NCBI GenBank assembly: GCA_964494015.1
Contig: CAZBQC010000002.1
Coordinates: 1 to 49,941, forward strand
DNA: 49,941 nt
Reading direction: 5' to 3'
Origin: an uncultured Muribaculaceae bacterium
Lineage (GTDB): Bacteria; Bacillota_I; Bacilli_A; RF39; UBA660
Every line of letters starts with the position of its first letter. The first letter of the stretch is position 1. Positions 17,302 through 42,049 of this stretch are shown in pieces. Below the pieces are notes generated by a model that was given only the letters and a program-made list of their open reading frames with translations, did no database searches and was not told the DNA's origin. The position numbers and the translations under genes are program-made.

Positions 17302-17419
17302 AGTTTACAATTATATGGAGACATTATCCTCTTAGAATTAACTTTTTAACTAGTCTATGTAATTATTTGTGTTATAGAATTCGTAAGAATTTTATATAGA
17401 ATAAGAAAGGATGGTTTCA

Positions 17420-17518
17420 ATGAAAAATTTTGAAAAAAAAGTGAATCCAACAATTTCTGTTATCAAAAATAACGGCACAAAAGTTTGTATGGCTGTTGGA
17501 ACATGTCATTGTAACTAA
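17420..17518 (+). CDS. Unannotated 32-aa Cys-rich small ORF; candidate RiPP precursor peptide (MKNFEKKVNPTISVIKNNGTKVCMAVGTCHCN)
   Basis: ATG at 17420 preceded by AGAAAGGATGG. Lys/Asn-rich N-terminal half and a C-terminal CMAVGTCHCN with three Cys. TAA at 17516-17518. It sits immediately upstream of a radical-SAM/SPASM gene and is below the 60-aa cutoff of the ORF track. Confidence 0.65.
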   Translation: MKNFEKKVNPTISVIKNNGTKVCMAVGTCHCN

Positions 17519-17523
17519 TCACA

Positions 17524-17570
17524 CATAAAAGTGGTGTTGGCTATAACGCCGACACCACTTTTATGATTAT
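17524..17570 (+). terminator. Strong hairpin with a U-rich tail between precursor ORF and maturase genes (candidate leaky terminator/attenuator)
   Basis: 18-bp stem CATAAAAGTGGTGTTGGC / GCCGACACCACTTTTATG (one G-U pair), loop TATAAC, then ATTATT. GC-rich core GTGGTGTTGGC...GCCGACACCAC followed by TTTTATGATTATT. Confidence 0.65.
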
Positions 17571-18781: not shown

Positions 18782-18782
18782 T

Positions 18783-19601: not shown

Positions 19602-20499
19602 AGCAAATATTATTTTAACTCACAATTGTAATTTGAGATGTTTACATTGTTATATAGATGCTAAAACCAGTAGTGAAAATCAAGAAGAAATTTTAACTAG
19701 AACAAAAAAAATTATTTATCAATTATATAAAGATAATGTTAAAAGTATAATGTTTACTGGTGGGGAATGTATGTTATTTAGGCCACTACTAGAACTAATT
19801 AGGTATGCTAAAAATTATCAAATGTCAGTAACGATTTTTACAAATGGAATGATATTTAATAAAGAAATTTTTGATTTAGTTGATGCCGTAAACATTAGTT
19901 TAGACGGAACAAAAGAAATTCATAATTATATTAGACAAAATAATTATTCTTATGATAATGTAGTTAAAGTTTTGGATTATTTAAAAAAAATCGATAAATA
20001 TACTACTATTCAAATGACGATAAATAACTTGAATGTTAATGATTTGGATTTTTTATCTCCGTTATTAATGCAGCACTTAAATGTTAGAACAGTGAAATTA
20101 GTTTTTATATCATCAGATGGTAGAGCAATAGAAAATAATTTAGTACATGAACATACACATATTGATAAAATATATGATAAAATTGATACTCTTTATGAAG
20201 CCACGAAATATCATATTCAATTTGTTCCAAGTATTATTAATAAATATGATTTTGAAAATTATTATGTAAGTGGAGTATTGGATTTTGCTCTATGGATAGA
20301 TGTTCCGGAAAATACTTATTATTTTATAAGTAATAAATATATGCCTAGTCATACATTGGATGATTTTAATATACAAGAAGCAAATAGATGCAATAACAAA
20401 ATTAAACAAATTATCTCAGATAGCAAATCTTTAATAATTAAAGATGAGTATATTAATTTGGAAAAAACACTTTCTGAATTAATTAAGGGAGAATTATAA
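19591..20499 (+). CDS. Radical SAM enzyme (core domain only, no SPASM Cys cluster)
   Basis: THNCNLRCLHCY and FTGGECMLF. Only one further Cys occurs in the C-terminal 200 aa. It overlaps the previous gene by 11 nt. Confidence 0.75.
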   Translation: MISRANIILTHNCNLRCLHCYIDAKTSSENQEEILTRTKKIIYQLYKDNVKSIMFTGGECMLFRPLLELIRYAKNYQMSVTIFTNGMIFNKEIFDLVDAVNISLDGTKEIHNYIRQNNYSYDNVVKVLDYLKKIDKYTTIQMTINNLNVNDLDFLSPLLMQHLNVRTVKLVFISSDGRAIENNLVHEHTHIDKIYDKIDTLYEATKYHIQFVPSIINKYDFENYYVSGVLDFALWIDVPENTYYFISNKYMPSHTLDDFNIQEANRCNNKIKQIISDSKSLIIKDEYINLEKTLSELIKGEL

Positions 20500-22442: not shown

Positions 22443-22451
22443 AGTGTTAAT

Positions 22452-23579
22452 ATGATAGATATAAGATTAAAAAAAATGGCCGAATCAATTATTAAATATT
22501 CACTTAATATAAGACCAGGGGAAAAAGTTTTAATTGATTCCAGTAAAAATTGTAGTGAAATGATTAAATATTTAATTGAATTAATTGCAAATAATGGTGC
22601 AATTCCATTAGTAATTATTAAAGAAAATGATATTCAAAGAAGCTTAATAATGAACGGTAGTCAAGAACAGTTTGAAATTATGAGGAAGCACGAACAAATG
22701 TTACTAGAGTGTGTTGATGTATATATTAATATGATGGATTCGGATAATTGTTATGATATGTCTGATATTCCAAGTGATAAACGGTCACTATATCAGCAAT
22801 ATTATTTCAAGCCAATTAATTTTGAAGTAATTATGCCAAAACTTAGATGGATAACTGTAGACTATCCATCCGTGTCATCAGCACAACAATTTGGCATGAG
22901 TACAGAAGCATATGAAAAATATTTCTTTGATGCTGTCAATACAGATTATAAAGAGTTACATACCGCAATGATACCTTTAAAAAACATACTTGATAAGGGA
23001 AGGCATGTTCAAATAACATCTCCAGATACAACAAATTTATCTTTTGATATAACCGAATTTAAAGCTGTGATTTGTAGTGGTAAAATAAATATTCCTGATG
23101 GAGAGGTGTTTATTGCTCCAGATTTAAAATCATTAAATGGAACAATTAAATTTAATGTTCCATCTCGTTACTCTGGAAAGCAATTCTCGAACATTTTTCT
23201 TACATTTGAGAATGGTAAAGTAATTAGTCATAATTCAGATACGAATAGTTCTTCACTAACCTCTTTATTGGATATTTCTGAAGGCAATAGATATGTTGGA
23301 GAATTTGCTATAGGAACAAACCCAAACATTGATACACCAAGGACAAACATTTTATTTGATGAAAAAATATTAGGCTCTATTCATTTAGCCTTAGGAAATA
23401 GTCATAGTTTAAGTGACAACGGAAATGTTGGATCAATTCATTGGGATATGGTTAAAATGTTAACTCCTGAATATGGCGGTGGAAGTGTTATTATTGATGA
23501 TCGATTGATTCAAGAAAATGGAATATTTATTCCAGAAGAATTAAAGTCCCTACATTCTAAAAAATTAGTTAGGAAATAA
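22452..23579 (+). CDS. M29-family aminopeptidase (AmpS/PepS-like)
   Basis: IKYSLNIRPGEKVLI, INIPDGEVFIAP, GEFAIGTN, IHLALGNS and IHWDMV follow the thermophilic-metalloprotease M29 motif order. Confidence 0.75.
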   Translation: MIDIRLKKMAESIIKYSLNIRPGEKVLIDSSKNCSEMIKYLIELIANNGAIPLVIIKENDIQRSLIMNGSQEQFEIMRKHEQMLLECVDVYINMMDSDNCYDMSDIPSDKRSLYQQYYFKPINFEVIMPKLRWITVDYPSVSSAQQFGMSTEAYEKYFFDAVNTDYKELHTAMIPLKNILDKGRHVQITSPDTTNLSFDITEFKAVICSGKINIPDGEVFIAPDLKSLNGTIKFNVPSRYSGKQFSNIFLTFENGKVISHNSDTNSSSLTSLLDISEGNRYVGEFAIGTNPNIDTPRTNILFDEKILGSIHLALGNSHSLSDNGNVGSIHWDMVKMLTPEYGGGSVIIDDRLIQENGIFIPEELKSLHSKKLVRK

Positions 23580-23629
23580 TGGTAAAAGAGTAGAATCAAA
23601 AAATTAAATTATAAAAGGAGGTAATTTGA

Positions 23630-24103
23630 ATGGAATTAGTTCAAATTAAACAAAAAGATTTAGAAATATTAGAAAGGTTATTGCAGTTATATTTACACGA
23701 CATTAGTAAATATTTTCCAATAGAATTTGAGGAAAATACAGGGTTATATCTGTATGATGGTTTAGACAAATATTTTGATGGTTCAAAAAATTATGCTTAT
23801 TTTATAAAATTAGAAAAAAAAATAGCCGGCTTTATTTTGGTTGATTCTAATGAAAATGAAAAAATTATTCAAGAAATGTTTGTTTTAAATCATCATAAAA
23901 ACAAAGGTATTGGTAAATTAGCTGTTTGCAAAGTGTTAGAGAATAGTAAAGGTAATTGGATTATAAAGTCCTTACCGAATTCTGAACCTGCTGAAAGATT
24001 TTGGGATAGAACAATAAAAGAATATACTAATAATAGTTATCATGTTGAACATGTTGGTAGATATAATAGAGCTGTTTTTACTTTTAATAATAGTGATAAA
24101 TAA
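23630..24103 (+). CDS. GNAT-family N-acetyltransferase
   Basis: 157 aa. Acetyl-CoA-binding region QEMFVLNHHKNKGIGKLAV and C-terminal AERFWDRTIKEY. Strong RBS AAGGAGG. Confidence 0.7.
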   Translation: MELVQIKQKDLEILERLLQLYLHDISKYFPIEFEENTGLYLYDGLDKYFDGSKNYAYFIKLEKKIAGFILVDSNENEKIIQEMFVLNHHKNKGIGKLAVCKVLENSKGNWIIKSLPNSEPAERFWDRTIKEYTNNSYHVEHVGRYNRAVFTFNNSDK

Positions 24104-24104
24104 T

Positions 24105-25295
24105 ATGGAAGTATATTTAAGAAGAAAGAGTGAGGAATTAGAGTTTTTGTCTGGTTTTATAGATAATGAATTTCAGCATGCTCGTTTGATTGCACCAGCC
24201 AATGTTATATCAGTAAAAGAGCAAATAACTAAAGAGATTAGAAATAAAAACAGTATAAAATACTATCATGAATTAACAAATAAAACTAAAATTGGATTCA
24301 ATGATATATTTGAATACAACTATACATATGAACGATTTAATGGTTTTATAAAAATTCCATATTTTGCGAATGATTTTTATCATATAGAAAAAAATGTTAT
24401 CACAGAAACTTATTTTTCTAATTGTGGTATGAGTTCCATAGTTTCGCTTTTATCATCAATAATTTCCGCAAATGATTGTAGTGTGGACTTAATGTATGAG
24501 GAAACTTACTTTGAAACAATAAAGTTTCTTAGTTCGATAATAAAAGTAAAAAATCAAGATTTTTTTCTTTATATTGATTCAATAGCAAGTAATTTTAGCT
24601 TTCTTGATGATTTTAATTCTGATAATTATCTTGGAGTAATTATTGATACAACTTGTTTTGTTGGTGAAGATTATAAAAAAATGATAAACTATATAATATC
24701 GACAGGAACACCATGTGTTTTAGTACGTAGTCATACTAAAATAGATTTACTTGCAACAGAATACTCACATATTGGATCCGTTTCATTTATTTATCCGAAA
24801 ATTGAAAATAATAAAACAAAGAGAGTAAAAAAAGTTGAAACTGATTGTAAACATTTAATAGGTGTTTTTGGAGCTTGTTTACCTCCAGAAAAGTTTCCAA
24901 CTTTTATATTAAATAATAAAATAAAAACATTAAATAATAACAGAATAAAAATTGTTAATGAAAACAATAGTTTATTCTTTTCTATTTTGAAAGATTATAA
25001 AATTAATGTGATTTTACCGAATCATAGGCAATTCTGCTTGATATATTTAAAAACCATTTCAGGTACATTAGAGGATTTAAAACAGAAAATATATAATTTT
25101 TGCAAAGAAAATGAGAAGGAATTTCTAACTTACTCAGCTGTAAGTTTTGGTTTTGATTATATTTCCATTGACTGTTATCAAAATTTTGTGGATTCAACAT
25201 TTAAAATTAGGGTATGTATAAATGATTTTCCAAAATTAGTTATAGAAAGCTTCGCTTACAAATTTATTGAATTTTTAAAAATAATTGATGACTAA
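24105..25295 (+). CDS. Hypothetical protein; possibly a divergent fold-type I PLP enzyme (Cys/Met-metabolism family-like)
   Basis: ATG 1 nt after the GNAT stop. The order of FSNCGMSSIVSLL, YEETY, VIIDTTCF and VLVRSHTKIDL parallels the SSGmaAi / Y.gT / vDnTfatP / hSaTKyl motifs of cystathionine synthase/lyase-type enzymes. Weak similarity judged by eye only. Confidence 0.35.
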   Translation: MEVYLRRKSEELEFLSGFIDNEFQHARLIAPANVISVKEQITKEIRNKNSIKYYHELTNKTKIGFNDIFEYNYTYERFNGFIKIPYFANDFYHIEKNVITETYFSNCGMSSIVSLLSSIISANDCSVDLMYEETYFETIKFLSSIIKVKNQDFFLYIDSIASNFSFLDDFNSDNYLGVIIDTTCFVGEDYKKMINYIISTGTPCVLVRSHTKIDLLATEYSHIGSVSFIYPKIENNKTKRVKKVETDCKHLIGVFGACLPPEKFPTFILNNKIKTLNNNRIKIVNENNSLFFSILKDYKINVILPNHRQFCLIYLKTISGTLEDLKQKIYNFCKENEKEFLTYSAVSFGFDYISIDCYQNFVDSTFKIRVCINDFPKLVIESFAYKFIEFLKIIDD

Positions 25296-25617: not shown

Positions 25618-26487
25618 ATGATGAAAATAAAAAAGCTTCCAATGGATGAATTAAGGATATCGATTACTTCAAGTTGCAATATGAAGTGTTACTATTGTCA
25701 CAATGAAGGAAATAGATTAACAAGCAAACTAGATATTAATGATATAGATTCATTAATAAACGCTGCAATGAAATTTGGATTAAAAAGTATCAGATTGACT
25801 GGTGGAGAACCAATGATCTGTAATGATATTTTCAGTATTTGTAGCATGATAAAAGAAAAATATAATTTAAAAATAGGTATAAATACTAATGGCATCGAAA
25901 TAGATAAAATATTAGAATTGATTGATTCTAATTTAATTGATAGAGTGGTAGTAGGAATAGATTATTTCAATAATAAGATATCTAAGAATTCACCAGTTGG
26001 TATATGTTCTAAAGATATTTTAAGAAATATTGAATTAATCAAAAAAAGAGGTATTGGTGTTACTATTGCAACAGTTTTTGATAATGATTATAGTGATATA
26101 GAACAGTTATTTAATTGGGCTTTAACACATGACATTAGAATAAAAATTTTGGAAAAGATAGATGATGAACAAAGTGATGTTACATCTCCAGCTTATATAA
26201 AAATTAGAGATCAAATTATAGATAAATATAATTTAATACCTAAAATAGATCCTATTTTTAATGAGTTACATGGTTATCTTGGTGGAAAGAGAGTTGTTTC
26301 TTTTTTTCATTCTCATTGTCGAATAAGGGAGTGCAGATTATGTAAAAACATGCACTTGAGAGTCATGAGTAGTGGGAAGCTAAAGCCTTGTTTGCTAAAT
26401 ACGGAAACAGAAGTTGATTACAAGATAGGAAATGTTGAAAAAAATATTGTTACAGCTATTGATTTATTAGGGATACCACCTAAATAA
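25618..26487 (+). CDS. Radical SAM enzyme, MoaA-like (GTP 3',8-cyclase family architecture)
   Basis: LRISITSSCNMKCYYCHNEG, IRLTGGEPM, and a C-terminal second cluster region CRIRECRLCKNMHLRVMSSGKLKPCL. No other molybdopterin genes are in the window. Confidence 0.55.
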   Translation: MMKIKKLPMDELRISITSSCNMKCYYCHNEGNRLTSKLDINDIDSLINAAMKFGLKSIRLTGGEPMICNDIFSICSMIKEKYNLKIGINTNGIEIDKILELIDSNLIDRVVVGIDYFNNKISKNSPVGICSKDILRNIELIKKRGIGVTIATVFDNDYSDIEQLFNWALTHDIRIKILEKIDDEQSDVTSPAYIKIRDQIIDKYNLIPKIDPIFNELHGYLGGKRVVSFFHSHCRIRECRLCKNMHLRVMSSGKLKPCLLNTETEVDYKIGNVEKNIVTAIDLLGIPPK

Positions 26488-28444: not shown

Positions 28445-28729
28445 ATGAATAAAAGAAAACTATGGAGTAAAAAAGAAAAAATTAGAGTTGTTAGAAAAGT
28501 GTTAAGTACGAATAAATCCCTATCGACAATTGCTAAAGAAGAATCTCTCGATGTGAAAATTATTATTAGATGGGTAAGAAAGTATAATAATGAAGGAGAA
28601 AATGGTCTATCATCAAATAGGAATAAGACTTTAGCTAAGAGGACCACTCAAGAAAAAACACTAGGTTGGGAGCTGGAAAATATATTATCAAAAAAAGTTT
28701 ATTGGCTGAAAGAGGGTGTTCAAATTTAA
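28445..28729 (+). CDS. IS3-family transposase OrfA (HTH)
   Basis: WSKKEKIRVVRKVLSTNKSLSTIAKEESLDVKIIIRWVRKY is a typical IS3 OrfA helix-turn-helix. Confidence 0.8.
   Translation: MNKRKLWSKKEKIRVVRKVLSTNKSLSTIAKEESLDVKIIIRWVRKYNNEGENGLSSNRNKTLAKRTTQEKTLGWELENILSKKVYWLKEGVQI
28690..28697 (+). other. Programmed -1 ribosomal frameshift heptamer A AAA AAA (G)
   Basis: In the orfA frame the codons read TCA AAA AAA GTT. A -1 slip gives ...KKSLLAERGCSNLKV, which is the orfB frame. Confidence 0.7.
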
Positions 28730-29619
28730 AAGTTGCTTCCTCTCTTAAATTAAAGTATGCCATTATTCATCAACTTAGGAAGAATTATTCTATTAAATTT
28801 TTGTGTGATCGTTTAGATATCAATCGTAGCAGTTATTATAAGTGGTTAAAAAGCGATTGTGGTCACAGGCAAAGAAAAAAAAGAGAGAAATTAATTAAAC
28901 TTATCAACGTTATTCATGAAAACTATCCAACTTACGGATATCGAAGAATTGGATTTTTAGTTAGAAAAAGATTTAATGTTTCTGATCAATACATATATAA
29001 ATGTTGTTCATACTTAGGAATAAAGTCAAAAGTTAAAAGAAATAAGTCGAGAAATAAACCTTTAGGCATCAATAAGTATGATAATCTTGTCAATAATAAG
29101 TGGAATACTTTAAGGCCTTTAGAAATAGTAATATCTGATACCACTACTATTAATCATTGCACAGGCGAGTACAATTTAACTTTATATATTGATGCATTCA
29201 ATAATGAGATTATTAGCTATGATCTAACTGAGAAGGGACATGAAGAACTTTCTTCTCATCTTAAAGCTTTGACTAGATTTATTAAGATAAAAAAGAGTCG
29301 AGGTTACTTTAATATTAGAACGATTCTTCATACTGATCAAGGAGCAATATATGCTTCTGATGTTTTTAATGCTATTTGCAAGAACAATAATATTATTCAC
29401 AGTATGTCGAGGTTGGGTAAACCGACTGACAATGCCAAAATAGAGGCGATTAACGGTTGGATTAAACAAGAAATGGAAACAGACTTCCATTTTTTTTATG
29501 TACAAAATATTGCTCAGTTCATTAAAAAATATGTTAACTACTACAATACTGAGCGACCATCCTATAAGTTAGGTAATAAGACACCTCTTGGGTATAGGCT
29601 TGATTGTCATTTTAAATAA
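28696..29619 (+). CDS. IS3-family transposase OrfB part (DDE/rve integrase core), expressed as an OrfAB fusion
   Basis: YGYRRI, VISDTT (D), LHTDQGAIYAS (D) and GKPTDNAKIEAINGWIKQE (E). Confidence 0.8.
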   Translation, partial: SLLAERGCSNLKVASSLKLKYAIIHQLRKNYSIKFLCDRLDINRSSYYKWLKSDCGHRQRKKREKLIKLINVIHENYPTYGYRRIGFLVRKRFNVSDQYIYKCCSYLGIKSKVKRNKSRNKPLGINKYDNLVNNKWNTLRPLEIVISDTTTINHCTGEYNLTLYIDAFNNEIISYDLTEKGHEELSSHLKALTRFIKIKKSRGYFNIRTILHTDQGAIYASDVFNAICKNNNIIHSMSRLGKPTDNAKIEAINGWIKQEMETDFHFFYVQNIAQFIKKYVNYYNTERPSYKLGNKTPLGYRLDCHFK

Positions 29620-32925: not shown

Positions 32926-33086
32926 AAACTTCCTCCTTCTTAACAATAATTATTATAATACTTGTTAATTAAAAAATTGTCAAGGATTTGAAGGTATCAA
33001 ACCATTACAATTTCTGGTAATTTAGATGATGTATCAGATTTTATTAATTCTAAAAATATGTTAAAATAAAATAGGAGGAATGAAAA

Positions 33087-33620
33087 ATGTATGAATTAAA
33101 AGATTTTGAATTAGAAGGAAAAATGAATGATGCGTATCATTATTTGACACTAAATTTATCCGAAACAGGGCACAATAGCAAACCTGTTTTAATGCATAGT
33201 ATTGCTGTTTCGATGACATTATATCATTTGGGATATAATGAAGAAATTGTAATTTCGTCTATATTACATGATGTAATTGAAGATACTGATGTTTGTTATG
33301 AGGATGTAAAATCAAAATTTGGAGAGAATATTGCTGATATTGTTAATGCAGTTAGCTTTAATCCGGATATAGAAGATAAAATATTACAAACCAAAGAAGT
33401 ATATAAAAGAATTGGTAACCAGGGATATCAGGCTTTAATTGTAAAGTGTTCTGATTTGTTTTGTAATTTACCATTCATAGAATGTGTTAAAAAAGAAGAG
33501 ACATTAAGGTATTTAAAAACGAAATATAAATTATTTATTGAAATGTTTGGTGAAGAATTAAGCAAGGAAAAAATATATAATTTGTTTGTTGAAAGGTATA
33601 AAAGTTTGATTAATGATTAA
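33087..33620 (+). CDS. HD-domain (p)ppGpp-hydrolase-like protein (RelA/SpoT hydrolase-domain family, stand-alone)
   Basis: HSIAVSMTLYHLG and ILHDVIEDTD are the signature of the RelA/SpoT-type HD hydrolase domain. 177 aa. Confidence 0.65.
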   Translation: MYELKDFELEGKMNDAYHYLTLNLSETGHNSKPVLMHSIAVSMTLYHLGYNEEIVISSILHDVIEDTDVCYEDVKSKFGENIADIVNAVSFNPDIEDKILQTKEVYKRIGNQGYQALIVKCSDLFCNLPFIECVKKEETLRYLKTKYKLFIEMFGEELSKEKIYNLFVERYKSLIND

Positions 33621-33681
33621 ATATTATGAACCATTAGTGTTAGTAAAAAAAGTGCAGAGGCAAAGATAGAAAATAGTTAAC

Positions 33682-33761
33682 GATAAAAAAGTTAGTTTTT
33701 TTTTCGCATCAATTGTAGCATTCCGTTTTTTATTTAATAAAGATTAAAAAATTGTTGACAA
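33682..33761 (+). repeat. Duplicated intergenic block, copy A (left flank of operon 2)
   Basis: GATAAAAAAGTTAGTT plus a T-run ... TATTTAATAAAGAT ... AAAAAATTGTTGACAA. The same ordered blocks occur at 41747-41857. Confidence 0.55.
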
Positions 33762-33783
33762 TTAATGAATTATTTGTTATTGT
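33755..33783 (+). promoter_or_regulatory. Putative promoter of operon 2
   Basis: TTGACA at 33755-33760, a 17-nt spacer, and extended -10 TGtTATTGT with the hexamer at 33778-33783. A ~160-nt leader follows. Confidence 0.5.
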
Positions 33784-33946
33784 AACCATTGTATTTGGGA
33801 ATGTATCCCCAAGGTTATTTTATTGTTGCGGTATTTAATTAATTTGGGGGACTGATTTTCGGATTCTCAATTTTTATTATAAAAAGCGGAGATTATGAAA
33901 TAAAAATTATAAGATAATTTATGTGTAGCAGTCCATGGAGGATTTT

Positions 33947-36043
33947 ATGGAAGAAGATAAGATAACTGTTGTTGTACCTATGTATAATAGTGAAAAATAT
34001 ATAGAACGTTGTCTAAAATCCATATGCAATCAATCGTATCAAAATCTAGAAATTATTGTAATAGATGATGGAAGTACAGATAATAGTAAATTTATTGTTG
34101 AAAAGCTACAAGAAAGTGATTCAAGAATCAATTACTTTTACCAAGAAAATAAAGGACCAGGTTTAGCTAGAAATGTTGGGATTGAAAACGGAATAGGCAA
34201 ATATATTTCTTTTATTGATAGTGATGATGAAATAAGAAAAACATTTATTGAAGTTCTTTACAAAACTATAAGAAAAGACGACAGTTTTTCCTTAACTGGT
34301 GGATATATGATTTATCAAGATGGATCAACCGAAAAATCATTTTTAACAACAAAAACAGAAACTAAGAACTTTAAAGTTCCTATCTGTTGTAATAAACTAT
34401 TTAATTTTGAATTAATTCGAAAAAATAACTTAAGATTTCAGGGACTATATTATGCAGAGGATATAGATTTTTGGGGAAGAATTTTAATGATTAATGATAA
34501 TTTTTCGATTGCAAATGACTATTTATATTTATGCTATTTTAGAGAAGATTCTTTGACTAGAAGTTACACAGATAAAAGTATAATTTATCAAATATTCTAT
34601 GTAGTAGATAACATAGAAAAACTTGCAAAAGAAAATGAAAAGTTCGATCAGTATAAAGATAGCTTAGAATTTTTAAATATAAAAGAAATTTTTATAAGGG
34701 CAATGAAACAAATTAGTCAAATGCCTAGTTTCAGTGACTATGACATAATTAAAATGCTTGAATATGTCGAGGCAAAATATCCTAATTGGTATTATAATAA
34801 ATATATCAGATCTTCCTTTGATAAATATAGAAAGAAAAGATTGGAATTGTTATTTAAAAAAGATTTTGCCGGTTTAATTAGTTATCTTAGACAATTAAAT
34901 TCAGGATATGTAGTTCAATCTGATGAAGAGATTTTAGCACAAAATATTATTAATCATTCCATTGCTGTTGAAAAAGGACAAGCAGTTCAAATTAGGTATA
35001 AAAGCACGAAGTGTAATCCGTTAGTTATACAATTAATTAGAGAAATTCAAGAAAAAGGAGCAATTGCTATTACTAGATTTCAGGATGCAGAATTAGAAAG
35101 GGTTACAAAAGAAACATATGACATTTATGCAATGACTAAGTTGGCCGGGATAATTACAAGAGAATCTGAATTTTATGATTCATTTATATCAATTGGATAT
35201 AGTGAAAATGATTATGATTCATCAAAAAGTAATGAAAACCCAGCTAGTAGAATACTTATTAGTAATCTTACGGATTATAATAAAATTGTTCGTAATAAAA
35301 AGGGGATAGTACTTTCTTATCCTTCTCCTTTAGATGCGCATAAGTCAAAAATGACTACAGAGGAATATAAGAGATATGCTTTTTCTATTTTAAATTATGA
35401 TTACAAGTCACTTAAGTCAAAAATGGTACCATTACAGAAATTAATAGAGAAAACGAAAAAAGTTTCTATATTAGGTAAAGATACAGAGTTAAGTTTTCTT
35501 ATTGAAAATATAGGTGGAATTATCATGGCGGGAGAAGTTAATATTCCGGATGGAGAAGTATATACTGCTCCAATTAGAAATAGTGTCAATGGAATAGTAA
35601 AGTTTAATGTCCATAGCAAATACATGGGAAATGTTTACGAAAATGTGATATTAGAATTTAAAAATGGAAAGATTATTGATTTTAATTGTAACAATCCAAA
35701 TGATTTTAAAGGTATCATAGATATTGACGAGGGTAGTAGGTATATTGGAGAATTTGCTTTAGGAGTTCATCCGTTAATACTTCATCCTATATTAAGTACT
35801 CTTCATGATGAAAAAATATATGGCAGTTTTCATTTGGCATTAGGGCAGTCTTATAGGAATGCTTATAATGGAAACGATTCCAATATACATTGGGATTTAA
35901 TTGATATTCAGAGAAATGATTATAATCCAGGTAAAATATATTTTGATGAAGAATTAGTAAGAGAAAATGGAGAATTTATTTTGGATGATTTAAAACCATT
36001 AAATGACAAAAGAGCTTATACATTAACTACAAGGAGAAGATAA
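33947..36043 (+). CDS. Bifunctional fusion: N-terminal family-2 glycosyltransferase plus C-terminal M29 aminopeptidase domain
   Basis: GT2: ITVVVPMYNSEKYIERCL, IIVIDDGSTDNS and FIDSDD. M29: VNIPDGEVYTAP, GEFALGVHP, FHLALGQS and IHWDLI. Start preferred at the ATG at 33947 (GGAGG 5 nt upstream); the track start is 33935. Confidence 0.75.
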   Translation: MEEDKITVVVPMYNSEKYIERCLKSICNQSYQNLEIIVIDDGSTDNSKFIVEKLQESDSRINYFYQENKGPGLARNVGIENGIGKYISFIDSDDEIRKTFIEVLYKTIRKDDSFSLTGGYMIYQDGSTEKSFLTTKTETKNFKVPICCNKLFNFELIRKNNLRFQGLYYAEDIDFWGRILMINDNFSIANDYLYLCYFREDSLTRSYTDKSIIYQIFYVVDNIEKLAKENEKFDQYKDSLEFLNIKEIFIRAMKQISQMPSFSDYDIIKMLEYVEAKYPNWYYNKYIRSSFDKYRKKRLELLFKKDFAGLISYLRQLNSGYVVQSDEEILAQNIINHSIAVEKGQAVQIRYKSTKCNPLVIQLIREIQEKGAIAITRFQDAELERVTKETYDIYAMTKLAGIITRESEFYDSFISIGYSENDYDSSKSNENPASRILISNLTDYNKIVRNKKGIVLSYPSPLDAHKSKMTTEEYKRYAFSILNYDYKSLKSKMVPLQKLIEKTKKVSILGKDTELSFLIENIGGIIMAGEVNIPDGEVYTAPIRNSVNGIVKFNVHSKYMGNVYENVILEFKNGKIIDFNCNNPNDFKGIIDIDEGSRYIGEFALGVHPLILHPILSTLHDEKIYGSFHLALGQSYRNAYNGNDSNIHWDLIDIQRNDYNPGKIYFDEELVRENGEFILDDLKPLNDKRAYTLTTRRR

Positions 36044-36044
36044 A

Positions 36045-37166
36045 ATGACAAAAGTGCCGTCGCTGATTGTTTTAAATCTTACATCTGATTGTAATTTACG
36101 ATGTAAATATTGTTATGCTTCTGCCGGTAATTGCAAAGATTATATGACTTCAAGGTGTGCTATTGAAATAGTTACACAAGTTTCAAAATATAATGATTCT
36201 ATTGAACTACTATTTCATGGTGGCGAACCACTAATGAACTTTGAAGTTATTAAGAATGTAATAAATTTTTGCAAAAATAAATTAAAAGAAAAAGAAATAA
36301 GTTATTATATTCAAACTAATTCATTGCTTCTTACAAAAGAAAAAGCAGAATATCTAATCAATGAAAATGTTGAAATATGTCTTAGTATGGATGGTAATAC
36401 TGAAATAAGTAATAGTGGCAGGGTCGACTCTAAAGGGAATTCGAGTTTAAATATTATTAAAAGCAGAATAGAGTTATTGAAATCATTAGACTATAATACT
36501 ACCATTTTGGCAGTTCTAAATAAGAAAAATGTAGGAAAAATTGAATCATTTATAGACTATCTTGTGGAAAATAAAATTTATAATTTTTCATTAAACTATT
36601 TTATTAAAGGTGGTCGTGGTAATAATAATAAGAATCTAGCGCTAAATCCGAAAGCACTATATAATGCAACAGTAAAAACTATTAATAAAGTTTTAGAATA
36701 TCGTCGGAAAAATGTTAAAATAATAGAGAGAAATGTTTTACATTTATTAAGAAATGTTATAACCAAAAGTAAAGGTTATATGTGTATGAATAGTCCATGC
36801 GGGGCTGGTAATCATCTTTTAGGGTTCACACCGAATGGGGATATTTATCCTTGCGATGATTTAAGTTCAGTAGAACAATTTAAAATCGGAAATATTTTTG
36901 ATGGTGATTTAATGAATACCCTAGAAAATAATAGTATTGTAAATTTCTTTAACTATTGTTCTTATGATAATATTCCAAAATGTTGTTGCTGTGATTTTAA
37001 AGATCGTTGTGGAGCTGGTTGTGCATCTAGAAAATTTTATGAAAAAGGCACAATATATGAAGTTGATCCAATTTGTGAATTTTATAAAATGATAATACCA
37101 TATATAGAAAATAGAATAAAAAATGAACCGTTAATAAAGGAATTGATTGATGAACATGAAAAATGA
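36045..37166 (+). CDS. Radical SAM/SPASM enzyme (anSME-like), no N-terminal extension
   Basis: SDCNLRCKYCY, FHGGEPL and YMCMNSPCGAGNHLLGFTPNGDIYPCDD, then CCCCDFKDRCGAGCASR and PICEF. Confidence 0.8.
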   Translation: MTKVPSLIVLNLTSDCNLRCKYCYASAGNCKDYMTSRCAIEIVTQVSKYNDSIELLFHGGEPLMNFEVIKNVINFCKNKLKEKEISYYIQTNSLLLTKEKAEYLINENVEICLSMDGNTEISNSGRVDSKGNSSLNIIKSRIELLKSLDYNTTILAVLNKKNVGKIESFIDYLVENKIYNFSLNYFIKGGRGNNNKNLALNPKALYNATVKTINKVLEYRRKNVKIIERNVLHLLRNVITKSKGYMCMNSPCGAGNHLLGFTPNGDIYPCDDLSSVEQFKIGNIFDGDLMNTLENNSIVNFFNYCSYDNIPKCCCCDFKDRCGAGCASRKFYEKGTIYEVDPICEFYKMIIPYIENRIKNEPLIKELIDEHEK

Positions 37167-37845
37167 TATTTTAGGGAAAAAAATAGACAGAAACCAATTA
37201 GATATTATAAATAAAATAATGAAAGTAAAAAATAAAATTCTTTTTTTAAAATCCATCCCTCAAACAGGGAAAACAGCAGTTCTAAAAAGATTATTTGACA
37301 TCAATAATGATAAAATAAAAATGTTTATTACTGGATGTAATCCAAAAAACATGAAGTTTATTGACGATAGTGTTTTATTTGAAATAAACTCATGTATTAA
37401 TAAAAATAGGAATGAAAATATATCAATTTTTTTTGATGAATACTATAATTGTAAAATTTTGGATTATTTTAAACATAATAAATTAGATAATGTAAGTGTA
37501 TATATTAGTACTAATAAAATAAGTAAAGAAATTAGTTATGATGTTGAAATAATAGATATATACGAAGATGTATTTAGAGGTTTAGATAAATTCATGTTTT
37601 CAAAATATTCGGTTGATATCTCTACAAAAGTTCGTAAAAGAAGTATTTCAATAATGGAACTTATGGAAATTGTCAAAATTCTTCAAAATAAAAAGTATTT
37701 AAATTATTCTGTTGATAAATTACTTTTATTCCTTCAAAATAAGCTAAAAAGTAAAAAAATTAAAAGATTTTTACCGACGACTACGGCAATACTTTATATA
37801 AATAAAGATTATCAAATGTTAAAAACATTTGAGTTCAAAGAATAG
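37147..37845 (+). CDS. Hypothetical protein with P-loop NTPase-like Walker A/B motifs
   Basis: SIPQTGKTAVLKRL (Walker-A-like) and ISIFFDEYY (Walker-B-like). Overlaps the previous gene by ~20 nt. Start at TTG 37147 or ATG 37150/37156. Confidence 0.35.
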   Translation: MMNMKNDILGKKIDRNQLDIINKIMKVKNKILFLKSIPQTGKTAVLKRLFDINNDKIKMFITGCNPKNMKFIDDSVLFEINSCINKNRNENISIFFDEYYNCKILDYFKHNKLDNVSVYISTNKISKEISYDVEIIDIYEDVFRGLDKFMFSKYSVDISTKVRKRSISIMELMEIVKILQNKKYLNYSVDKLLLFLQNKLKSKKIKRFLPTTTAILYINKDYQMLKTFEFKE

Positions 37846-37857
37846 TGGGGTAATTAA

Positions 37858-39165
37858 ATGAGCTTATCATTAGTAACTAAACCAAATTTGAATATTCTTA
37901 TAAATAAGAATAGTGGCAAATGGATAGCATTTAAAAATAATGAAGAAATAAAAAGTGAGATTATAGAAATAACCAATAAACAACAACTAATGCGAAAGTA
38001 TGGTGAAAAATTCGCAAATCTACTTTGGAATAAAAGAGTTGAGATGGCTAAGAAATCCAAAAATAAGTTATGTTATAATATGAATTGCCTAGTAATAAAT
38101 GTGACTAATAATTGTAACTTAAAATGTGAATATTGTTATGTAAATAAATATGATAACAGACATTTTATAGAGAGCGACACTATAATTAAATCAGTAAAAA
38201 TGTTTGCCTCAAATATTTATCCAAATAAATTGACAGTAATTTTTCATGGAGGTGAGCCATTATTAGCTTTTGATAAAATTAAAGAGGCTGTTATTAAATT
38301 AATTAATGTAAATAATGTTGTATATTCTCTCCAAACCAATGGAACATTACTTGATTCAGACAAATTAGATTTTTTTAAGAAGCATAAATTTTTAATTGGA
38401 TTAAGCATTGATGGTATAAATGACGAAAATAATTCGTTAAGAAATGTAGATGGTAAAATGAGAGATTATACCCTAAATAATTTGAAAATTTTAAGCCAAA
38501 ATAAAGATTTTGTAAAGCCTCTTCTTGTGATTCATAGGAAAAATATCAATAGTATAAAAGAAATAGTTGATTATTTTAAAAATAATGGATTTGATGGTTT
38601 AGTATGTAATTTATTATTTGAAAGTAATGATTTTAAAAATTGCGTATTAGATGATTCATTATTTGAAAATATGAAATACACTTTGGATGTTATGATGGAA
38701 AATTTTGACGGTGAAAACTTCTCCTTTTCCGAACGTGACATAAGGTTATTATTTAGAAAGGTGGTATTTGGTTTTTTAGATGAATACATGTGCATGAATA
38801 GCCCATGTGGAGCAGGCAAAGAAACAATTGCGATTGATTATAATGGGAATGTATGGGGATGTAATGTATTAATATCAAAAAACAAAGATCAAAATTATAT
38901 GGGGAATGTATTTAATAATTCTGTTGAAGAAATATTAAATAAAAAAATTTCAATTTCTAAACGTAATATTAAAAATATAGTTAAGTGTATGTCTTGTCCC
39001 TATAAAGTATTATGTGGTGGTGGAGGATGTTGCGGATTCATATCTCATCAAAACAATAAACTTCTGGATAATAGTATATATTGCAACTATCATTTTAAAC
39101 TAATTACTTATATAATAGAGAGTGTCATGAAATATAACAAAACTGATATTTTGGTTAATTTTTAA
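37858..39165 (+). CDS. Radical SAM/SPASM enzyme with a ~85-aa N-terminal (RRE-like) extension; paralog of 36045-37166
   Basis: NNCNLKCEYCY, FHGGEPL and YMCMNSPCGAGKETIAIDYNGNVWGCN, then CMSCPYKVLCGGGGCCGF and IYCNY. Confidence 0.8.
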   Translation: MSLSLVTKPNLNILINKNSGKWIAFKNNEEIKSEIIEITNKQQLMRKYGEKFANLLWNKRVEMAKKSKNKLCYNMNCLVINVTNNCNLKCEYCYVNKYDNRHFIESDTIIKSVKMFASNIYPNKLTVIFHGGEPLLAFDKIKEAVIKLINVNNVVYSLQTNGTLLDSDKLDFFKKHKFLIGLSIDGINDENNSLRNVDGKMRDYTLNNLKILSQNKDFVKPLLVIHRKNINSIKEIVDYFKNNGFDGLVCNLLFESNDFKNCVLDDSLFENMKYTLDVMMENFDGENFSFSERDIRLLFRKVVFGFLDEYMCMNSPCGAGKETIAIDYNGNVWGCNVLISKNKDQNYMGNVFNNSVEEILNKKISISKRNIKNIVKCMSCPYKVLCGGGGCCGFISHQNNKLLDNSIYCNYHFKLITYIIESVMKYNKTDILVNF

Positions 39166-39178
39166 AGGAGGTGATTAT

Positions 39179-39307
39179 ATGAAAAATAAGGATAAAAACT
39201 TTGATGCAATTATGAAAAAGCTATTAAACAATAAGAAAGTAAAAATTAAAGTTCCTACTTACAATAGTAAGGTAATGATGGCTCATTGGAGCAACGGATA
39301 TAATTAA
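39179..39307 (+). CDS. Unannotated 42-aa Cys-free small ORF; candidate RiPP precursor (MKNKDKNFDAIMKKLLNNKKVKIKVPTYNSKVMMAHWSNGYN)
   Basis: Strong RBS AAAGGAGGTG 5 nt upstream of the ATG at 39179, which lies 13 nt after the rSAM stop. TAA at 39305-39307, followed by a terminator. The C-terminus is rich in aromatic and polar residues (Y28, H36, W37, Y41) and has no Cys. Confidence 0.65.
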   Translation: MKNKDKNFDAIMKKLLNNKKVKIKVPTYNSKVMMAHWSNGYN

Positions 39308-39318
39308 AAGGAATTTGG

Positions 39319-39352
39319 AAATGACATATGATTTATTCATTTGTCATTTTTT
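39319..39352 (+). terminator. Intrinsic terminator ending operon 2
   Basis: AAATGACA(TATGA...TCAT)TGTCATTT followed by TTT. Confidence 0.65.
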
Positions 39353-39561
39353 AACTTAATAATAAGTGAAAACTTTTGATATTTTTCTGGATATTATTTT
39401 ATAATCATATTTACTTTTTGTTATCTATTTAGGATAATTATACAGAATTTTATATATTTAATTAGTAATATTGATTATCTTTTTTCCTTAGTATATTATA
39501 GTATTGTGTAAAGATTTAACTTTTGATTCTTAAGGTTTGTTATGAAAGAAAGTAGTGAAAT

Positions 39562-41178
39562 ATGAAAAATGTTTATTATTGTTCACACAATAAAGAAATT
39601 ATTAATAATAAGATATTAATTAAACCTAATGCTGGTTTGTATTATACATTAGACAATTATGTTTTATGTTTATTATATTCTGTAAGTTTTGATGTAGATT
39701 ATTACATACAAATAGTATTTGTTGGTAAAAAATTAATTATAGTGGAAAGATTTAAAAATGCTATTAAGCAAGCTTATAGTGATAAAAGTGTTTACATATA
39801 TACAGCTAAAGGCCCCTTTTTTCGACATAAAAAGAAAGAGAATTATTATATAAAAAGAAAATTAATGGTAAATAATGTAAGTTATATAAAAAATATTTAT
39901 GATGAAATAACTGATAAGGCCAAAAACAATGAATTAGATATAATAAAATATAAACAAAGTACAAAAAAAGATATAGATATCCTTAATAAAAAGTTTCTTG
40001 AGAAAATTTTAAATATGAATTCAAAAACAAAAATCAATGAATGTTCATTGTTTTTTCCTCATATTAAAAAGAATACTAATCATAAAATACTAAAAGGAGT
40101 GGAAAAATATAGAAATAATGATATAAATAATCCTCATTATTTGTTCCATGGATCTTGTAGTTTAGTAAAGGGTTATATAAACCCAAATCAAGCTTATTGT
40201 AGTACTCTTAGTGTAGAGAACAATGAATGTGCTGTATACTCAGTAGCAGATCCAAAATATACTATACCATATTTATTTAAATTAAAAAAAGGGAAATTTT
40301 ATAATTTTAAAAACAGGAAGCATGAGTATGCAAGCCATTTTAAAACAGATTTATATTTTGGATTAGAAAATACAATAATCAAACAAGGCAGTATAAGCAT
40401 GAATGCAGTTGGCTATATATATGTTTTCTTGTCGAACAACTTTTTTCGAAATTCATCTGTGCAATGGATTTCTAAAGAAAAATGTAAGCCAATTGATATT
40501 GTAAAAATAAGTTATAAAGATGTACAAGAAAACTTTATTTATGTAAAGGAATGTTTAATTGAGAACTTATATAAAAAAATTGAAAAAAAGAGAGGCTTTT
40601 TGGAAGCTGAATTTAATAAAATCAAAAAACAGTGGTTTGATAATTTAATTGATAACCATGATAGAAAACATATGGAAAGAGTATGTCTATTATCGGTATA
40701 CATTGCAACTTTGATGAATATAGATGATAACGATATTATTTTATTAATTAAGGTGGCTTTATATCATGATATAGGCCGAATTAATGAATTTAGGGAAGAA
40801 AAACACGGGATCAGAGGTGCTAAGCTCCTTCATAGTATCCTAACTAATTATTTACCTGAACCAGTAGGTAATATTAATATAAATGAAATTCAATTTTTAG
40901 TTTCAAGCCATTGTGTTAACGAAAATAAATATAGTTCTTTTTTTCGTAAATATAAATGTTCAAAAATTAGACACGATAGCTTATTGATTTTGTTAAAAAT
41001 TCTAAAAACTGCTGACATACTTGACATGTGCAGATATAAAAAATTTAACTCAATTTTTAAGATTTTAAATTTTAGTGAAATTGAAAGTGCTAGATTAATT
41101 TATATTGCAGAAGATTTATATAAATATTATAATAATTATATTAGTGATAGAAAGGAGTATTTTAAAAATCAAAAATGA
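39562..41178 (+). CDS. Large hypothetical protein with a C-terminal HD-domain phosphohydrolase module
   Basis: The HD module contains HMERV and VALYHDIGRINE...KHGIRGAKLL. The middle region has YLFHGS ... AVYSVADPKYTIPY, a possible ADP-ribosyltransferase-like H-Y pattern (see findings). Confidence 0.5.
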   Translation: MKNVYYCSHNKEIINNKILIKPNAGLYYTLDNYVLCLLYSVSFDVDYYIQIVFVGKKLIIVERFKNAIKQAYSDKSVYIYTAKGPFFRHKKKENYYIKRKLMVNNVSYIKNIYDEITDKAKNNELDIIKYKQSTKKDIDILNKKFLEKILNMNSKTKINECSLFFPHIKKNTNHKILKGVEKYRNNDINNPHYLFHGSCSLVKGYINPNQAYCSTLSVENNECAVYSVADPKYTIPYLFKLKKGKFYNFKNRKHEYASHFKTDLYFGLENTIIKQGSISMNAVGYIYVFLSNNFFRNSSVQWISKEKCKPIDIVKISYKDVQENFIYVKECLIENLYKKIEKKRGFLEAEFNKIKKQWFDNLIDNHDRKHMERVCLLSVYIATLMNIDDNDIILLIKVALYHDIGRINEFREEKHGIRGAKLLHSILTNYLPEPVGNININEIQFLVSSHCVNENKYSSFFRKYKCSKIRHDSLLILLKILKTADILDMCRYKKFNSIFKILNFSEIESARLIYIAEDLYKYYNNYISDRKEYFKNQK

Positions 41179-41732
41179 AACAAGAAAAATTATATAATAA
41201 AATTAAGTTCGAGACCGAAAGATTAATAATTAGGCGTATAAAAAAGTCTGATTGGAATGATTTTTTTCAATTAATGAGTGATGAAAAAACCATGAATTTT
41301 CTAGGTAGAGTTATAACAAAAGATGAAGCAAAAGGTTATGTTATAAATCAAAGTAATATTAGTTACGAAAATTATAGTGGTTGTTATGCTGTGGTATTAA
41401 AATCCGAAAATAAAGTAATTGGACAGTTTGGTCTAGACATAAATGAGAAACATTCTAAGGCTTCTATAAGTTATTTATTTAATAGTAACTATTGGAATAA
41501 AGGTTATGCTATTGAAACGGTTAAATTTATGGTGGATTTTGCTTTTAATGAAATAAAATTAAATAGAATCGAAGCCGATTGCGTGGAAGAAAATGATTCA
41601 TCATTAAAGATATTCAATAAATTAGGAATGAAGTACGAAGGAAAATTTAGGGAGGCTCGTTTTAATAAAAAATATAATAAATATTTTAATGTTGTTTATT
41701 ATGCAGTATTAAGAAAAGATTATAAATCATAA
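41175..41732 (+). CDS. GNAT N-acetyltransferase of the RimJ/RimL (Acetyltransf_3) type
   Basis: ERLIIRRIKKSDWNDFFQL, NKGYAIETVKFMVDFAFNEIKLNRIEADCVEENDSSLKIFNKLGMKYEG. The ATG overlaps the preceding TGA (ATGA). Confidence 0.7.
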   Translation: MKQEKLYNKIKFETERLIIRRIKKSDWNDFFQLMSDEKTMNFLGRVITKDEAKGYVINQSNISYENYSGCYAVVLKSENKVIGQFGLDINEKHSKASISYLFNSNYWNKGYAIETVKFMVDFAFNEIKLNRIEADCVEENDSSLKIFNKLGMKYEGKFREARFNKKYNKYFNVVYYAVLRKDYKS

Positions 41733-41746
41733 AAAGTAAAATTAAA

Positions 41747-41857
41747 GATAAAAAAGTTAGTTCTTTTTTTTGTGATTATTAATAAATTATATTGTCGAAT
41801 AAATATTTAAAAGATCTTTACATGTCGATATTAGTCAAAAAAAATTGTTCTTGACAA
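41747..41857 (+). repeat. Duplicated intergenic block, copy B (right flank of operon 2 region, upstream of rpsJ)
   Basis: GATAAAAAAGTTAGTT plus C plus a T-run ... ATATTTAAAAGAT ... AAAAAAAATTGTTCTTGACAA. See copy A. Confidence 0.55.
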
Positions 41858-41897
41858 ACTTTTCAATAAAAAAGTCAAAGAAGTGTCAAAAAAGTAC

Positions 41898-41926
41898 TTG
41901 CAATAGTGAATTTATTATGCTAATAT
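41898..41926 (+). promoter_or_regulatory. Putative promoter of the S10 ribosomal protein operon
   Basis: TTGCAA at 41898-41903, a 17-nt spacer, and TAATAT at 41921-41926. A ~120-nt leader precedes rpsJ. Confidence 0.55.
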
Positions 41927-42049
41927 TATAAGCGTGTAATTTGCTTAGATGTGCAAGGTTGCCGATACACCAGGTTAAGTTGCTTGGTTAAATCGGGTTA
42001 TTTGTACGGAGCAAGCCTATACTAGATATAGACGAAGGGAGGACAGAAA

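Follow-up and report, generated by a model that had tools for sequence, protein, structure and literature searches.

The stretch analysed here, which comprises 49,941 nucleotides of contig CAZBQC010000002.1 from an uncultured bacterium (hereafter, the window), carries at about 33.7-39.4 kb five co-directional open reading frames, with a promoter-like site ahead of them and a hairpin terminator behind them. They encode a fusion of a family 2 glycosyltransferase (GT2) with an M29 aminopeptidase, a pair of radical S-adenosylmethionine (rSAM) enzymes with SPASM domains that are separated by a P-loop NTPase, and a 42-aa peptide. Comparison with related loci makes it likely that this is a biosynthetic system of the type that produces RiPPs (peptides that are ribosomally synthesised and then modified post-translationally), and that it acts on the 42-aa peptide, which is encoded by the last gene of the operon. 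An earlier sequence-only reading of this DNA had proposed a RiPP-type operon with a terminal Cys-free precursor, and this proposal was supported: the small open reading frame (sORF) and its core motif are kept beside divergent orthologous rSAM pairs.

Layout of the operon and its signals

The features of the system, including an N-acetyltransferase of the GNAT superfamily that is encoded further downstream and a candidate RiPP recognition element (RRE), are as follows.

33755..33783, + strand: promoter-like site, sigma-70-type, TTGACA-17-TGnTATTGT, with 10/12 consensus matches and an upstream TG
33794-33812 and 33844-33878, + strand: 5' leader with two hairpin elements and a T-run, in an attenuator-like 1:2/2:3/3:4 arrangement
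33947..36043, + strand: gene of the GT2-M29 fusion, likely start ATG 33947; the frame opens at 33935 (702 aa)
36045..37166, + strand: rSAM/SPASM enzyme 1 (rSAM1), 373 aa, without an RRE (Pfam)
37150..37845, + strand: P-loop NTPase, AAA_14/STAND-like, 231 aa, or 232 aa if TTG 37147 is the start
37858..39165, + strand: rSAM/SPASM enzyme 2 (rSAM2), 435 aa, with a predicted RRE-like N-terminal domain (Pfam, AlphaFold2 (AF2) model)
39179..39307, + strand: precursor sORF, 42 aa, no Cys (conserved motif, codon pattern)
39318..39352, + strand: intrinsic-terminator-like hairpin and U-run (free energy (dG) -13.3 kcal/mol, z -3.76)
41175..41732, + strand: Acetyltransf_3 (RimJ/RimL-type) GNAT (Pfam, 102 bits)

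This is a real five-gene operon. The tight packing of the first four genes that was described in the sequence-only reading is present in the sequence at every junction: a 1-nt gap lies between the stop of gene 1 (36043) and the ATG of gene 2 (36045), genes 2 and 3 overlap by 20 nt with the TTG 37147 start or by 17 nt with ATG 37150, and a 12-nt gap precedes the rSAM2 gene (37858). The sORF follows the last rSAM gene after 13 nt, and the near-perfect ribosome-binding site that had been ascribed to it was found as AGGAGGTGA ahead of its ATG. For gene 1, ATG 33947 is the most likely start because GGAGGA at 33937-33942 precedes it and the orthologue alignment begins at residue 5. At the operon end, the terminator proposed earlier corresponds to the hairpin at 39318-39352, which a simple terminator scan missed; none of 200 shuffled sequences (0/200) folded as well. 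Pfam also upheld the earlier domain assignments, i.e., GT2, M29 and Radical_SAM with SPASM. All of the proteins were predicted to be soluble, and no transmembrane segment was found in the GT2-M29 fusion.

The promoter requires more caution. The site that had been called at 33755-33783 is present, but in such AT-rich DNA promoter-type matches occur at chance density, with 79 found against 80.5 expected. What supports the call is not the consensus score but the conservation of the -35 and -10 blocks in the orthologous operon of L011, L012 and L013 (related loci are designated by L numbers). The 5' leader spans about 150 nt (33784-33934), and both of its hairpin elements are conserved in the orthologous operon from metagenome-assembled genomes (MAGs) that is described below (the MAG operon). 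Attenuator-like base pairing is possible between CCCCAA, the 3' arm of the first hairpin, and UUGGGG, the 5' arm of the second. The second hairpin forms a strong terminator in the MAG orthologue (dG -28.5 kcal/mol, z -4.3), while the version in the window is weaker (z -0.9). An Rfam scan of 33000-42000 returned nothing relevant, with no family matching the 5' leader. From the sequence we infer that the leader may have a regulatory role.

The precursor peptide and its family

The whole precursor sequence is MKNKDKNFDAIMKKLLNNKKVKIKVPTYNSKVMMAHWSNGYN; in the division that is used here, the leader is MKNKDKNFDAIMKKLLNNKKVKIK and the core, which ends in -HWSNGYN, is VPTYNSKVMMAHWSNGYN. The nearest relatives of rSAM2, which are 66-70 % identical to it, come from MAGs of Bacilli and Mollicutes, and they lie in the same five-gene operon with the same gene order and with flanks that are entirely unlike those of the window. 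The operon proteins are 68-72 % identical between the window and this MAG operon, which also ends in an sORF, in this case of 40 aa (MTKDKKYDAIMKKLATKRAKVNVPTYDSKVMMAHWSNGYN). The close homologues of the precursor are P0122-P0124; besides the sORF of the MAG operon, two further variants of 40 aa exist. Across the 18 codons of the core, five of the changes between the window and the MAG operon are synonymous and one (N to D) is non-synonymous. This synonymous excess argues that the sORF is translated and constrained, and the core is, by this comparison, under purifying selection.

More distant precursors were collected from clusters with rSAM2 relatives that are 29-40 % identical and by scanning metagenomes with a DNA pattern that was back-translated from the motif; most of the 120 stretches that were obtained in the latter scan were chance matches. 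The precursor alignment yielded a gap-free family motif, [ILV]-P-x-[YF]-[DN]-x3-h-M-x-H-W-[ST]-[ND], in which P, M, H and W are invariant. The motif has a fixed spacing and occurs singly or as two to four tandem repeats in about ten distinct cluster types from metagenomes. It was absent in every frame of 80 control rSAM/SPASM loci (1.1 Mb in total), which had been obtained from a genome-contig scan with the rSAM2 alignment, i.e., through generic rSAM patterns, and whose enzymes are only 21-30 % identical. Because the sORF is conserved beside orthologous rSAM pairs and its motif is absent from the controls, it is, on comparative grounds, a genuine conserved precursor. The sequence-only reading had itself named a lack of conservation next to homologous rSAM pairs as an outcome that would speak against the sORF, and the opposite was found in the roughly ten cluster types. 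The precursor cores of the more distant relatives are listed below.

L004: LPKYDENSIMMHWSDTS, two repeats
L006, L177: LPKYDERAIMMHWSNTS, two repeats
L131: at least three repeats
L153, L205: LPEYDENSIMMHWSNTSNKE, four repeats
L008: IPEFDDEALMVHWTNIS
L009, L010: IPEFDDEALMVHWTNCS
L095: VPNFDGTSLMSHWTNVD
L096, L181: VPDYDEASLMVHWSNIT
L136: LPDYDDDALMLHWTNAS

The family precursors are 40-82 aa long, and Cys is not conserved among them. Those of L153, L205, L131, L004 and L006 consist of two to four near-identical 20-aa core repeats with almost no leader; the L153 precursor (7676-7924, - strand), for example, reads MKNN(LPEYDENSIMMHWSNTSNKE)x3 LPEYDENSIMMHWSNTGF. Two candidates were rejected in the course of this comparison. 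A soil match, PLFDRLAIMRHWSD, proved to be the C-terminus of a NonGDSL lipase-like protein and not a precursor. It recurs in the soil metagenome contigs L113, L138, L165, L180, L185 and L216, and this coincidence cautions against mining that is based on the motif only. An N-x-S/T sequon after HW[ST]N was considered as a glycosylation site; several relatives have it, but the window, L004 and L095 do not.

The enzymes, their recurring partners and the surroundings

PF04055 and PF13186 matched above their cutoffs in both rSAM1 and rSAM2. The CX3CX2C motif is found at residue 16 in rSAM1 and at residue 86 in rSAM2, and each enzyme has 7-8 SPASM Cys, with eight Cys being invariant across the rSAM2 orthologues. 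As had been read from the sequence, both enzymes share the string YMCMNSPCGAG (at residue 245 in rSAM1 and 310 in rSAM2) and have full SPASM Cys sets. The N-terminal extension of rSAM2, which had been put at about 85 aa, is shorter and comprises about 70 aa, as judged from the positions of CX3CX2C. The two enzymes are only 29 % identical to each other, and in the related clusters that were compared each of them has its own orthologue, at 35-72 % identity for rSAM1 and 29-68 % for rSAM2, whose orthologues span 29-70 % overall. Because of this low mutual identity and the separate orthologues in each cluster, the two rSAMs are, as far as sequences can tell, anciently diverged SPASM paralogues with old, separately maintained functions. 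No N-terminal domain precedes rSAM1, whose closest solved relative, CteB, is aligned from CteB residue 97. In the AF2 model of rSAM2 (predicted local distance difference test (pLDDT) 86.7), the N-terminal unit is formed by four strands and two helices. The best fold matches of this model were the RRE-bearing maturases CteB, TigE and SuiB, which were followed by anSME and ChlB, and the N-terminal domain of about 70 aa thus resembles an RRE at the level of a predicted structure.

The P-loop protein has a Walker A motif (TGKT, residues 38-41) and a Walker B motif (FFDE). It matched AAA_14 weakly (17.8 bits against a cutoff of 27); 10/10 orthologues match this family (best E 1e-8), and some of them also match nSTAND NTPase families. 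GK[ST], G-x-x-P and hhhhDE are invariant in these 10 orthologues, which adjoin the rSAMs in the clusters that were examined; in L004 the protein adjoins a stand-alone M29 on the opposite strand. The gene had been described as P-loop-like, and the Walker motifs agree with that, but its status was missed: by its conservation, the P-loop NTPase is a core family member. There was no NCBIfam match for this protein, an AF2 model that was built from three sequences was unusable (pLDDT 45), and its profile matched among PDB sequences only the P-loop stretches of guanylate kinases and similar proteins. To our knowledge, a P-loop NTPase has no precedent in the described RiPP pathways.

In the fusion protein, the GT2 domain occupies approximately residues 1-320 (PF00535, 125 bits against a cutoff of 23.3) and has intact motifs, DDGS at residue 44 and DSDD at residue 95. 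Its best named matches were TuaG, PglI, EPS-type (exopolysaccharide-type) enzymes and GalT1, all with polysaccharide or glycan acceptors. The M29 aminopeptidase domain occupies approximately residues 330-700 (PF02073, 117.9 bits against 27); in the alignment with AmpS, PepS and AmpT, its blocks PDGEV, GEFALG, DEK and FHLALG fall on the corresponding conserved ones, IHWD is also present, and the M29 motifs are thus intact as well. We take these blocks to be the metal ligands (Glu, His and Asp) of the family. The MAG orthologue of the fusion is 72 % identical, and among the best 150 hits in 1.84 billion representatives it was the only other full-length GT2-M29 fusion. The M29 domain of the window is 38 % identical to the M29 of L153. 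The fusion is, by this distribution, a local invention that joins functions that are separate elsewhere.

The same functions recur in the relatives. A glycosyltransferase is present as GT2 in the window and the MAG operon and as GT9 in L004, L006, L096 and L153, and complete or partial ADP-heptose gene sets (HldE, GmhA, HAD phosphatase) accompany the GT9 clusters; in L098, ADP-heptose genes are present and no GT9 was seen. Judging from these gene contents, this operon and its relatives recruited their glycosyltransferases convergently: a GT2 in the former, a GT9 together with a private ADP-heptose pathway in the latter. The GT9/ADP-heptose genes inside these peptide-modifying rSAM clusters belong to low-GC organisms, and no heptosylated RiPP was described in the open literature that was searched. 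A peptidase recurs as well, as M29 in the window, the MAG operon, L004 and L153 and as M3 in L003, and a transglutaminase-core protease is found in L004, L006 and L153; such a protease is added in each of the clusters with multi-repeat precursors, L205 and L131 included. Clusters L006, L008-L010, L095 and L096 include ABC exporters, and no exporter is encoded in the window, the MAG operon or L153. Mobile contexts were also encountered: a recombinase is found in L095 together with ArdA and Rep, and a transposase in L012. The most complete arrangement is that of L153, in which a single operon encodes the protease, rSAM1, the P-loop protein, rSAM2, the four-repeat precursor, GT9, a GNAT, M29, HldE, GmhA and HAD.

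An Acetyltransf_3 GNAT is found in L004, L006, L098 and L153 and beside the MAG operon. The GNAT of the window is 73 % identical to the one beside the MAG operon and 32-37 % identical to those in or next to L004, L006 and L153 (37 % for L153). It lies in a separate transcription unit together with an HD-domain gene (39562-41178). Since GNATs recur in the relatives, and within a single operon in L153, we regard it as a probable seventh component of the system with a putative role, and the earlier component list, from which this gene at 41175-41732 was absent, was incomplete. The protein encoded by the HD-domain gene has 538 aa; its HD domain is C-terminal, and the 360 aa of its N-terminal part have no family match. 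The stop of this gene overlaps the GNAT start (ATGA at 41175-41178). Neither this protein nor the HD_4 protein encoded upstream of the operon (33087-33620) has a counterpart in any related locus, and both were rejected as cluster members.

Several other features of the window deserve mention. Another rSAM cluster, operon 1 (17411-25295), encodes an sORF product of 35 aa that contains Cys, an rSAM/SPASM enzyme, a protein of 292 aa without a known function, a second rSAM, a Tet(M)/EF-G-like GTPase with all of the EF-G domains, an M29 that stands alone, a GNAT and an uncharacterised protein of 417 aa. Its GTPase, which is of the ribosomal-protection type, hints at a ribosome-targeting product with self-resistance. 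The sequence-only reading had treated the two operons as related systems; the M29 domains are 36 % identical and the rSAMs share a generic similarity, and the kinship is weak, with nothing beyond these likenesses. Just downstream of operon 1 (25618-26487) lies a gene for a further radical SAM protein of 289 aa without a SPASM match, and there are five rSAM genes in the 50-kb window. An IS3-type transposase in two overlapping frames (28445-29619; HTH_Tnp_1, then rve) separates operon 1 from the operon described here. The low-GC stretch that surrounds it (~15-42 kb, 22-29 % GC) reaches as far as the S10 ribosomal-protein operon, where GC is 33-38 %. Ribosomal proteins L3 and L2 (42387-43211 and 44174-45001) were singletons at 90 % identity among 15 billion proteins, which indicates a poorly sampled lineage. 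At the left end of the window, an Abi_2 (abortive-infection-like) gene (1962-2915) is found among cell-wall amidase, LysM and NlpC/P60 genes.

Relation to known pathways and interpretation

No NCBIfam equivalog was reached at its cutoff by either rSAM, with HxsB, PapB, DynA and CbpB being the best matches. The HxsB model (TIGR03978) gave 164.5 and 150.5 bits for the two rSAMs against 370, less than half of the level required for membership. The His-Xaa-Ser (HXS) system, which was described as an antiphage system (PMC13128918), resembles the operon in that paired rSAM/SPASM enzymes and one small accessory protein act on a His-Xaa-Ser substrate. However, the HXS substrate is a 214-aa effector that carries a peptidoglycan-binding domain, here it is a short peptide, the accessory protein here is a P-loop NTPase and not HxsD, and glycosylation, aminopeptidase and acetyltransferase genes are added.

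Cyclophane- and ether-forming enzymes of the rSAM/SPASM type that act on Cys-free cores are known from the triceptide, darobactin and dynobactin types (XyeB, GrrM, FxsB, YhhB, HaaB, HtkB, DarE, DynA). Here, too, SPASM rSAMs are found together with a Cys-free core that is rich in Trp, Tyr and His, and the core contains the aromatic-X-X triplets Y-N-S, H-W-S and W-S-N. The scores were below the cutoffs for the triceptide models YhhB (NF041707, 109 against 445), GrrM/OscB (TIGR04261, 96 against 310), FxsB (TIGR04269, 77 against 370) and AmcB (NF041718, 104 against 425) as well as for DynA (NF041298, 157 and 121 bits against 450) and DarE (NF038005, 75 against 650). The core is unlike the W-N-W-S-K-S-F or W-N-S-N-V-H-S-Y-R-F types of darobactin and dynobactin. 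Moreover, there are always two dedicated rSAMs here instead of one, the P-loop NTPase is obligatory and accompanied by a glycosyltransferase, M29 peptidase and GNAT, and the precursor motif has an invariant Pro and Met. As a functional analogy, these enzymes are nonetheless the closest.

CteB, the enzyme of the SCIFF system, is the closest solved structure for both rSAMs, and rSAM2 shares its architecture of an RRE, rSAM and SPASM. The thioether families, i.e., sactipeptides, ranthipeptides and SCIFF, can be excluded because a thioether requires Cys and the core has none; PapB (NF047865, 158 and 143 against 340) and ScfB (TIGR03974, 132 and 79 against 425) also remained below membership. As in the glycocins, which have SunS/ThuS-type GT2 enzymes, a GT2 is encoded with a small ribosomal peptide. 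However, glycocins are described as disulfide-stapled helical cores without an rSAM, while in this operon the core lacks Cys and an aminopeptidase is joined to the GT2 in one protein.

The mycofactocin pathway (MftA-F) is the one described case in which an rSAM/SPASM enzyme, a peptidase and a GT2 come together, there to act on a short ribosomal peptide at its C-terminal end, and it shares with the operon both this set of parts and a cluster without an exporter. MftC (TIGR03962, 78 against 265), MftF (TIGR03965, 56 against 280) and the other Mft families did not reach membership. Furthermore, MftB, MftD and MftE are absent here, the core motifs differ, MftA ends in -GVY and the precursor in -HWSNGYN, there are two rSAMs, and relatives of this system have ABC exporters. 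The sequence-only reading knew of no described RiPP class in which these parts are combined. Open-literature searches with motif strings and with combinations of rSAM, RiPP, M29, heptosyl and glycosyltransferase, subscription-only papers being outside their scope, found no description of the family, and to this extent the statement stands; since mycofactocin already has the rSAM/SPASM enzyme, peptidase and GT2, the set of parts, though unusual, is not without precedent. The generic features of a RiPP cluster are present in the form of a co-conserved precursor and a maturase domain that, judging by its modelled RRE-like fold, may bind it.

Taken as a pathway, the genes very probably yield a cross-linked, sugar-decorated and trimmed product. 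The peptide would be docked by rSAM2 through its N-terminal RRE-like domain, after which each of the enzymes rSAM2 and rSAM1 would introduce a single radical-mediated modification into the invariant core P-x-Y/F-D/N ... M-x-H-W-S/T-N/D; side-chain cross-links of the C-C, C-N or C-O type on Tyr/Phe and His/Trp are the most likely. The P-loop NTPase would be an accessory that depends on ATP and perhaps partners rSAM1, which lacks an RRE; HxsD and PqqD have comparable partner roles for their rSAMs. The GT2 domain would then add a sugar, a step for which the relatives would use a GT9 heptosyltransferase with its own ADP-heptose pathway, the fused M29 aminopeptidase would trim N-terminal residues back to the protected, modified core, and the RimJ/L-type GNAT would cap the new N-terminus or protect the producer. 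Each chemical step of this scheme, the order of the steps and the function of the product are what we infer. The double cross-linking, possible glycosylation and leader removal by the fused aminopeptidase that had been suggested from the sequence fit the comparative data, as both rSAM orthogroups are always retained, which suits two modifications, and a glycosyltransferase (GT2, or GT9 with ADP-heptose genes) and a peptidase (M29, M3 or transglutaminase-core) recur. In all three cases the fit is a comparative one, and the chemistry is proposed rather than observed.

Several points weigh against this scheme or parts of it. No curated RiPP maturase family in NCBIfam reaches its cutoff, and homology therefore does not tell which type of reaction is to be expected. 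The nearest named relatives of the GT2 act on polysaccharide or glycan acceptors, and for a secreted RiPP it is unusual that the window, the MAG operon and L153 have no exporter. The almost leaderless precursors of L004 and L006 mean that the division into leader and core that is used here may be wrong. Because nearly leaderless (L004) and multi-repeat precursors exist, recognition may be built into the P-x-Y-D half, which would then not be the part that is modified. Additionally, L095 has Gly two positions after the first aromatic, and this speaks against a triceptide-type i/i+2 link at this aromatic throughout the family.

In an alternative that is favoured by the absence of an exporter, the peptide would be sacrificed as the scaffold of a small molecule inside the cell, as in the pathways for pyrroloquinoline quinone (PQQ) or mycofactocin: the two rSAMs would cross-link residues of the invariant core, endopeptidases and exopeptidases (M29) would digest the rest, and the remnant would be glycosylated, N-acetylated and kept as a cofactor or metabolite. 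The uniformly soluble proteins, the invariant core with its fixed spacing, the precursors with up to four identical repeats, and a parts list that is that of mycofactocin, with MftF and MftC among the weak NCBIfam matches, are all compatible with such a scaffold. We nevertheless consider it unlikely, because L006, L008-L010, L095 and L096 have ABC exporters, partner oxidoreductases are not conserved nearby, MftC and MftF score far under their cutoffs (78 against 265 and 56 against 280), and the rare, patchy and partly mobile distribution (L095, L012) is typical of secondary metabolites and not of cofactors.

Far less probable still is an HXS-like antiphage module, in which the two rSAMs and the accessory protein would mature a His-Xaa-Ser effector that blocks phage DNA entry. 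The idea draws on HxsB as the top NCBIfam match for both rSAMs, on the invariant H-W-S/T, which is compatible with His-Xaa-Ser, on the STAND/AAA_14-like character of the accessory protein and on the overall resemblance of two rSAMs, a small accessory and a substrate to HxsBCD/A (PMC13128918). It is opposed by rSAM scores of 164 and 150 bits against a cutoff of 370, by PADLOC, which gives only generic viperin-type rSAM matches, and by substrates of 40-82 aa that have neither a peptidoglycan-binding domain nor an array of basic HxS repeats. There is also no HxsD match, the P-loop protein being without any NCBIfam match, and HXS has no glycosyltransferase, aminopeptidase, GNAT or ABC exporter. 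We find it scarcely credible that the sORF is a reading frame that arose by chance and that the substrate of the enzymes is something other than a peptide, for example a glycan or a cell-envelope component. The matches of the GT2 to TuaG, PglI, EPS-type enzymes and GalT1 would suit such a substrate, and the promoter and sORF alone are insignificant in AT-rich DNA. However, this explanation is already contradicted by the conservation data, as sequence comparison shows the sORF and motif to be kept across clusters whose rSAM2 is only 29-35 % identical, synonymous changes dominate the core and the motif is absent from the control loci; moreover, the GT2 is fused to an aminopeptidase and rSAM2 carries an RRE-like domain.

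Returning to a RiPP pathway, the operon and its relatives apparently represent a small, undescribed family of rSAM-modified RiPP pathways. A more specific proposal, which we put forward tentatively and would place somewhat below an even chance, is that of an undescribed RiPP class. It would be built on 14-20-residue P-x-Y/F-D/N-x4-M-x-H-W-S/T-N/D units (one to four per precursor, some precursors being almost leaderless), each modified by two rSAMs and a P-loop ATPase, possibly with an unseen cross-link on the invariant Met/His/Trp. The units would be O-glycosylated (hexose-type here, heptose in the relatives), cut by peptidases including M29 and N-acetylated, and the product would be a small glycopeptide metabolite, perhaps intracellular or a signal, and not a classical bacteriocin.

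Enzymes of the rSAM/SPASM type acting on Cys-free peptides have repeatedly given new cross-link chemistry, and darobactin and dynobactin are new antibiotic scaffolds. The family described here is compact and testable, with a sharply conserved core motif and two obligatory rSAM orthogroups. The five-gene operon together with the GNAT is small enough for direct heterologous reconstitution, and the natural multi-repeat precursors provide an internal control for the minimal substrate unit.

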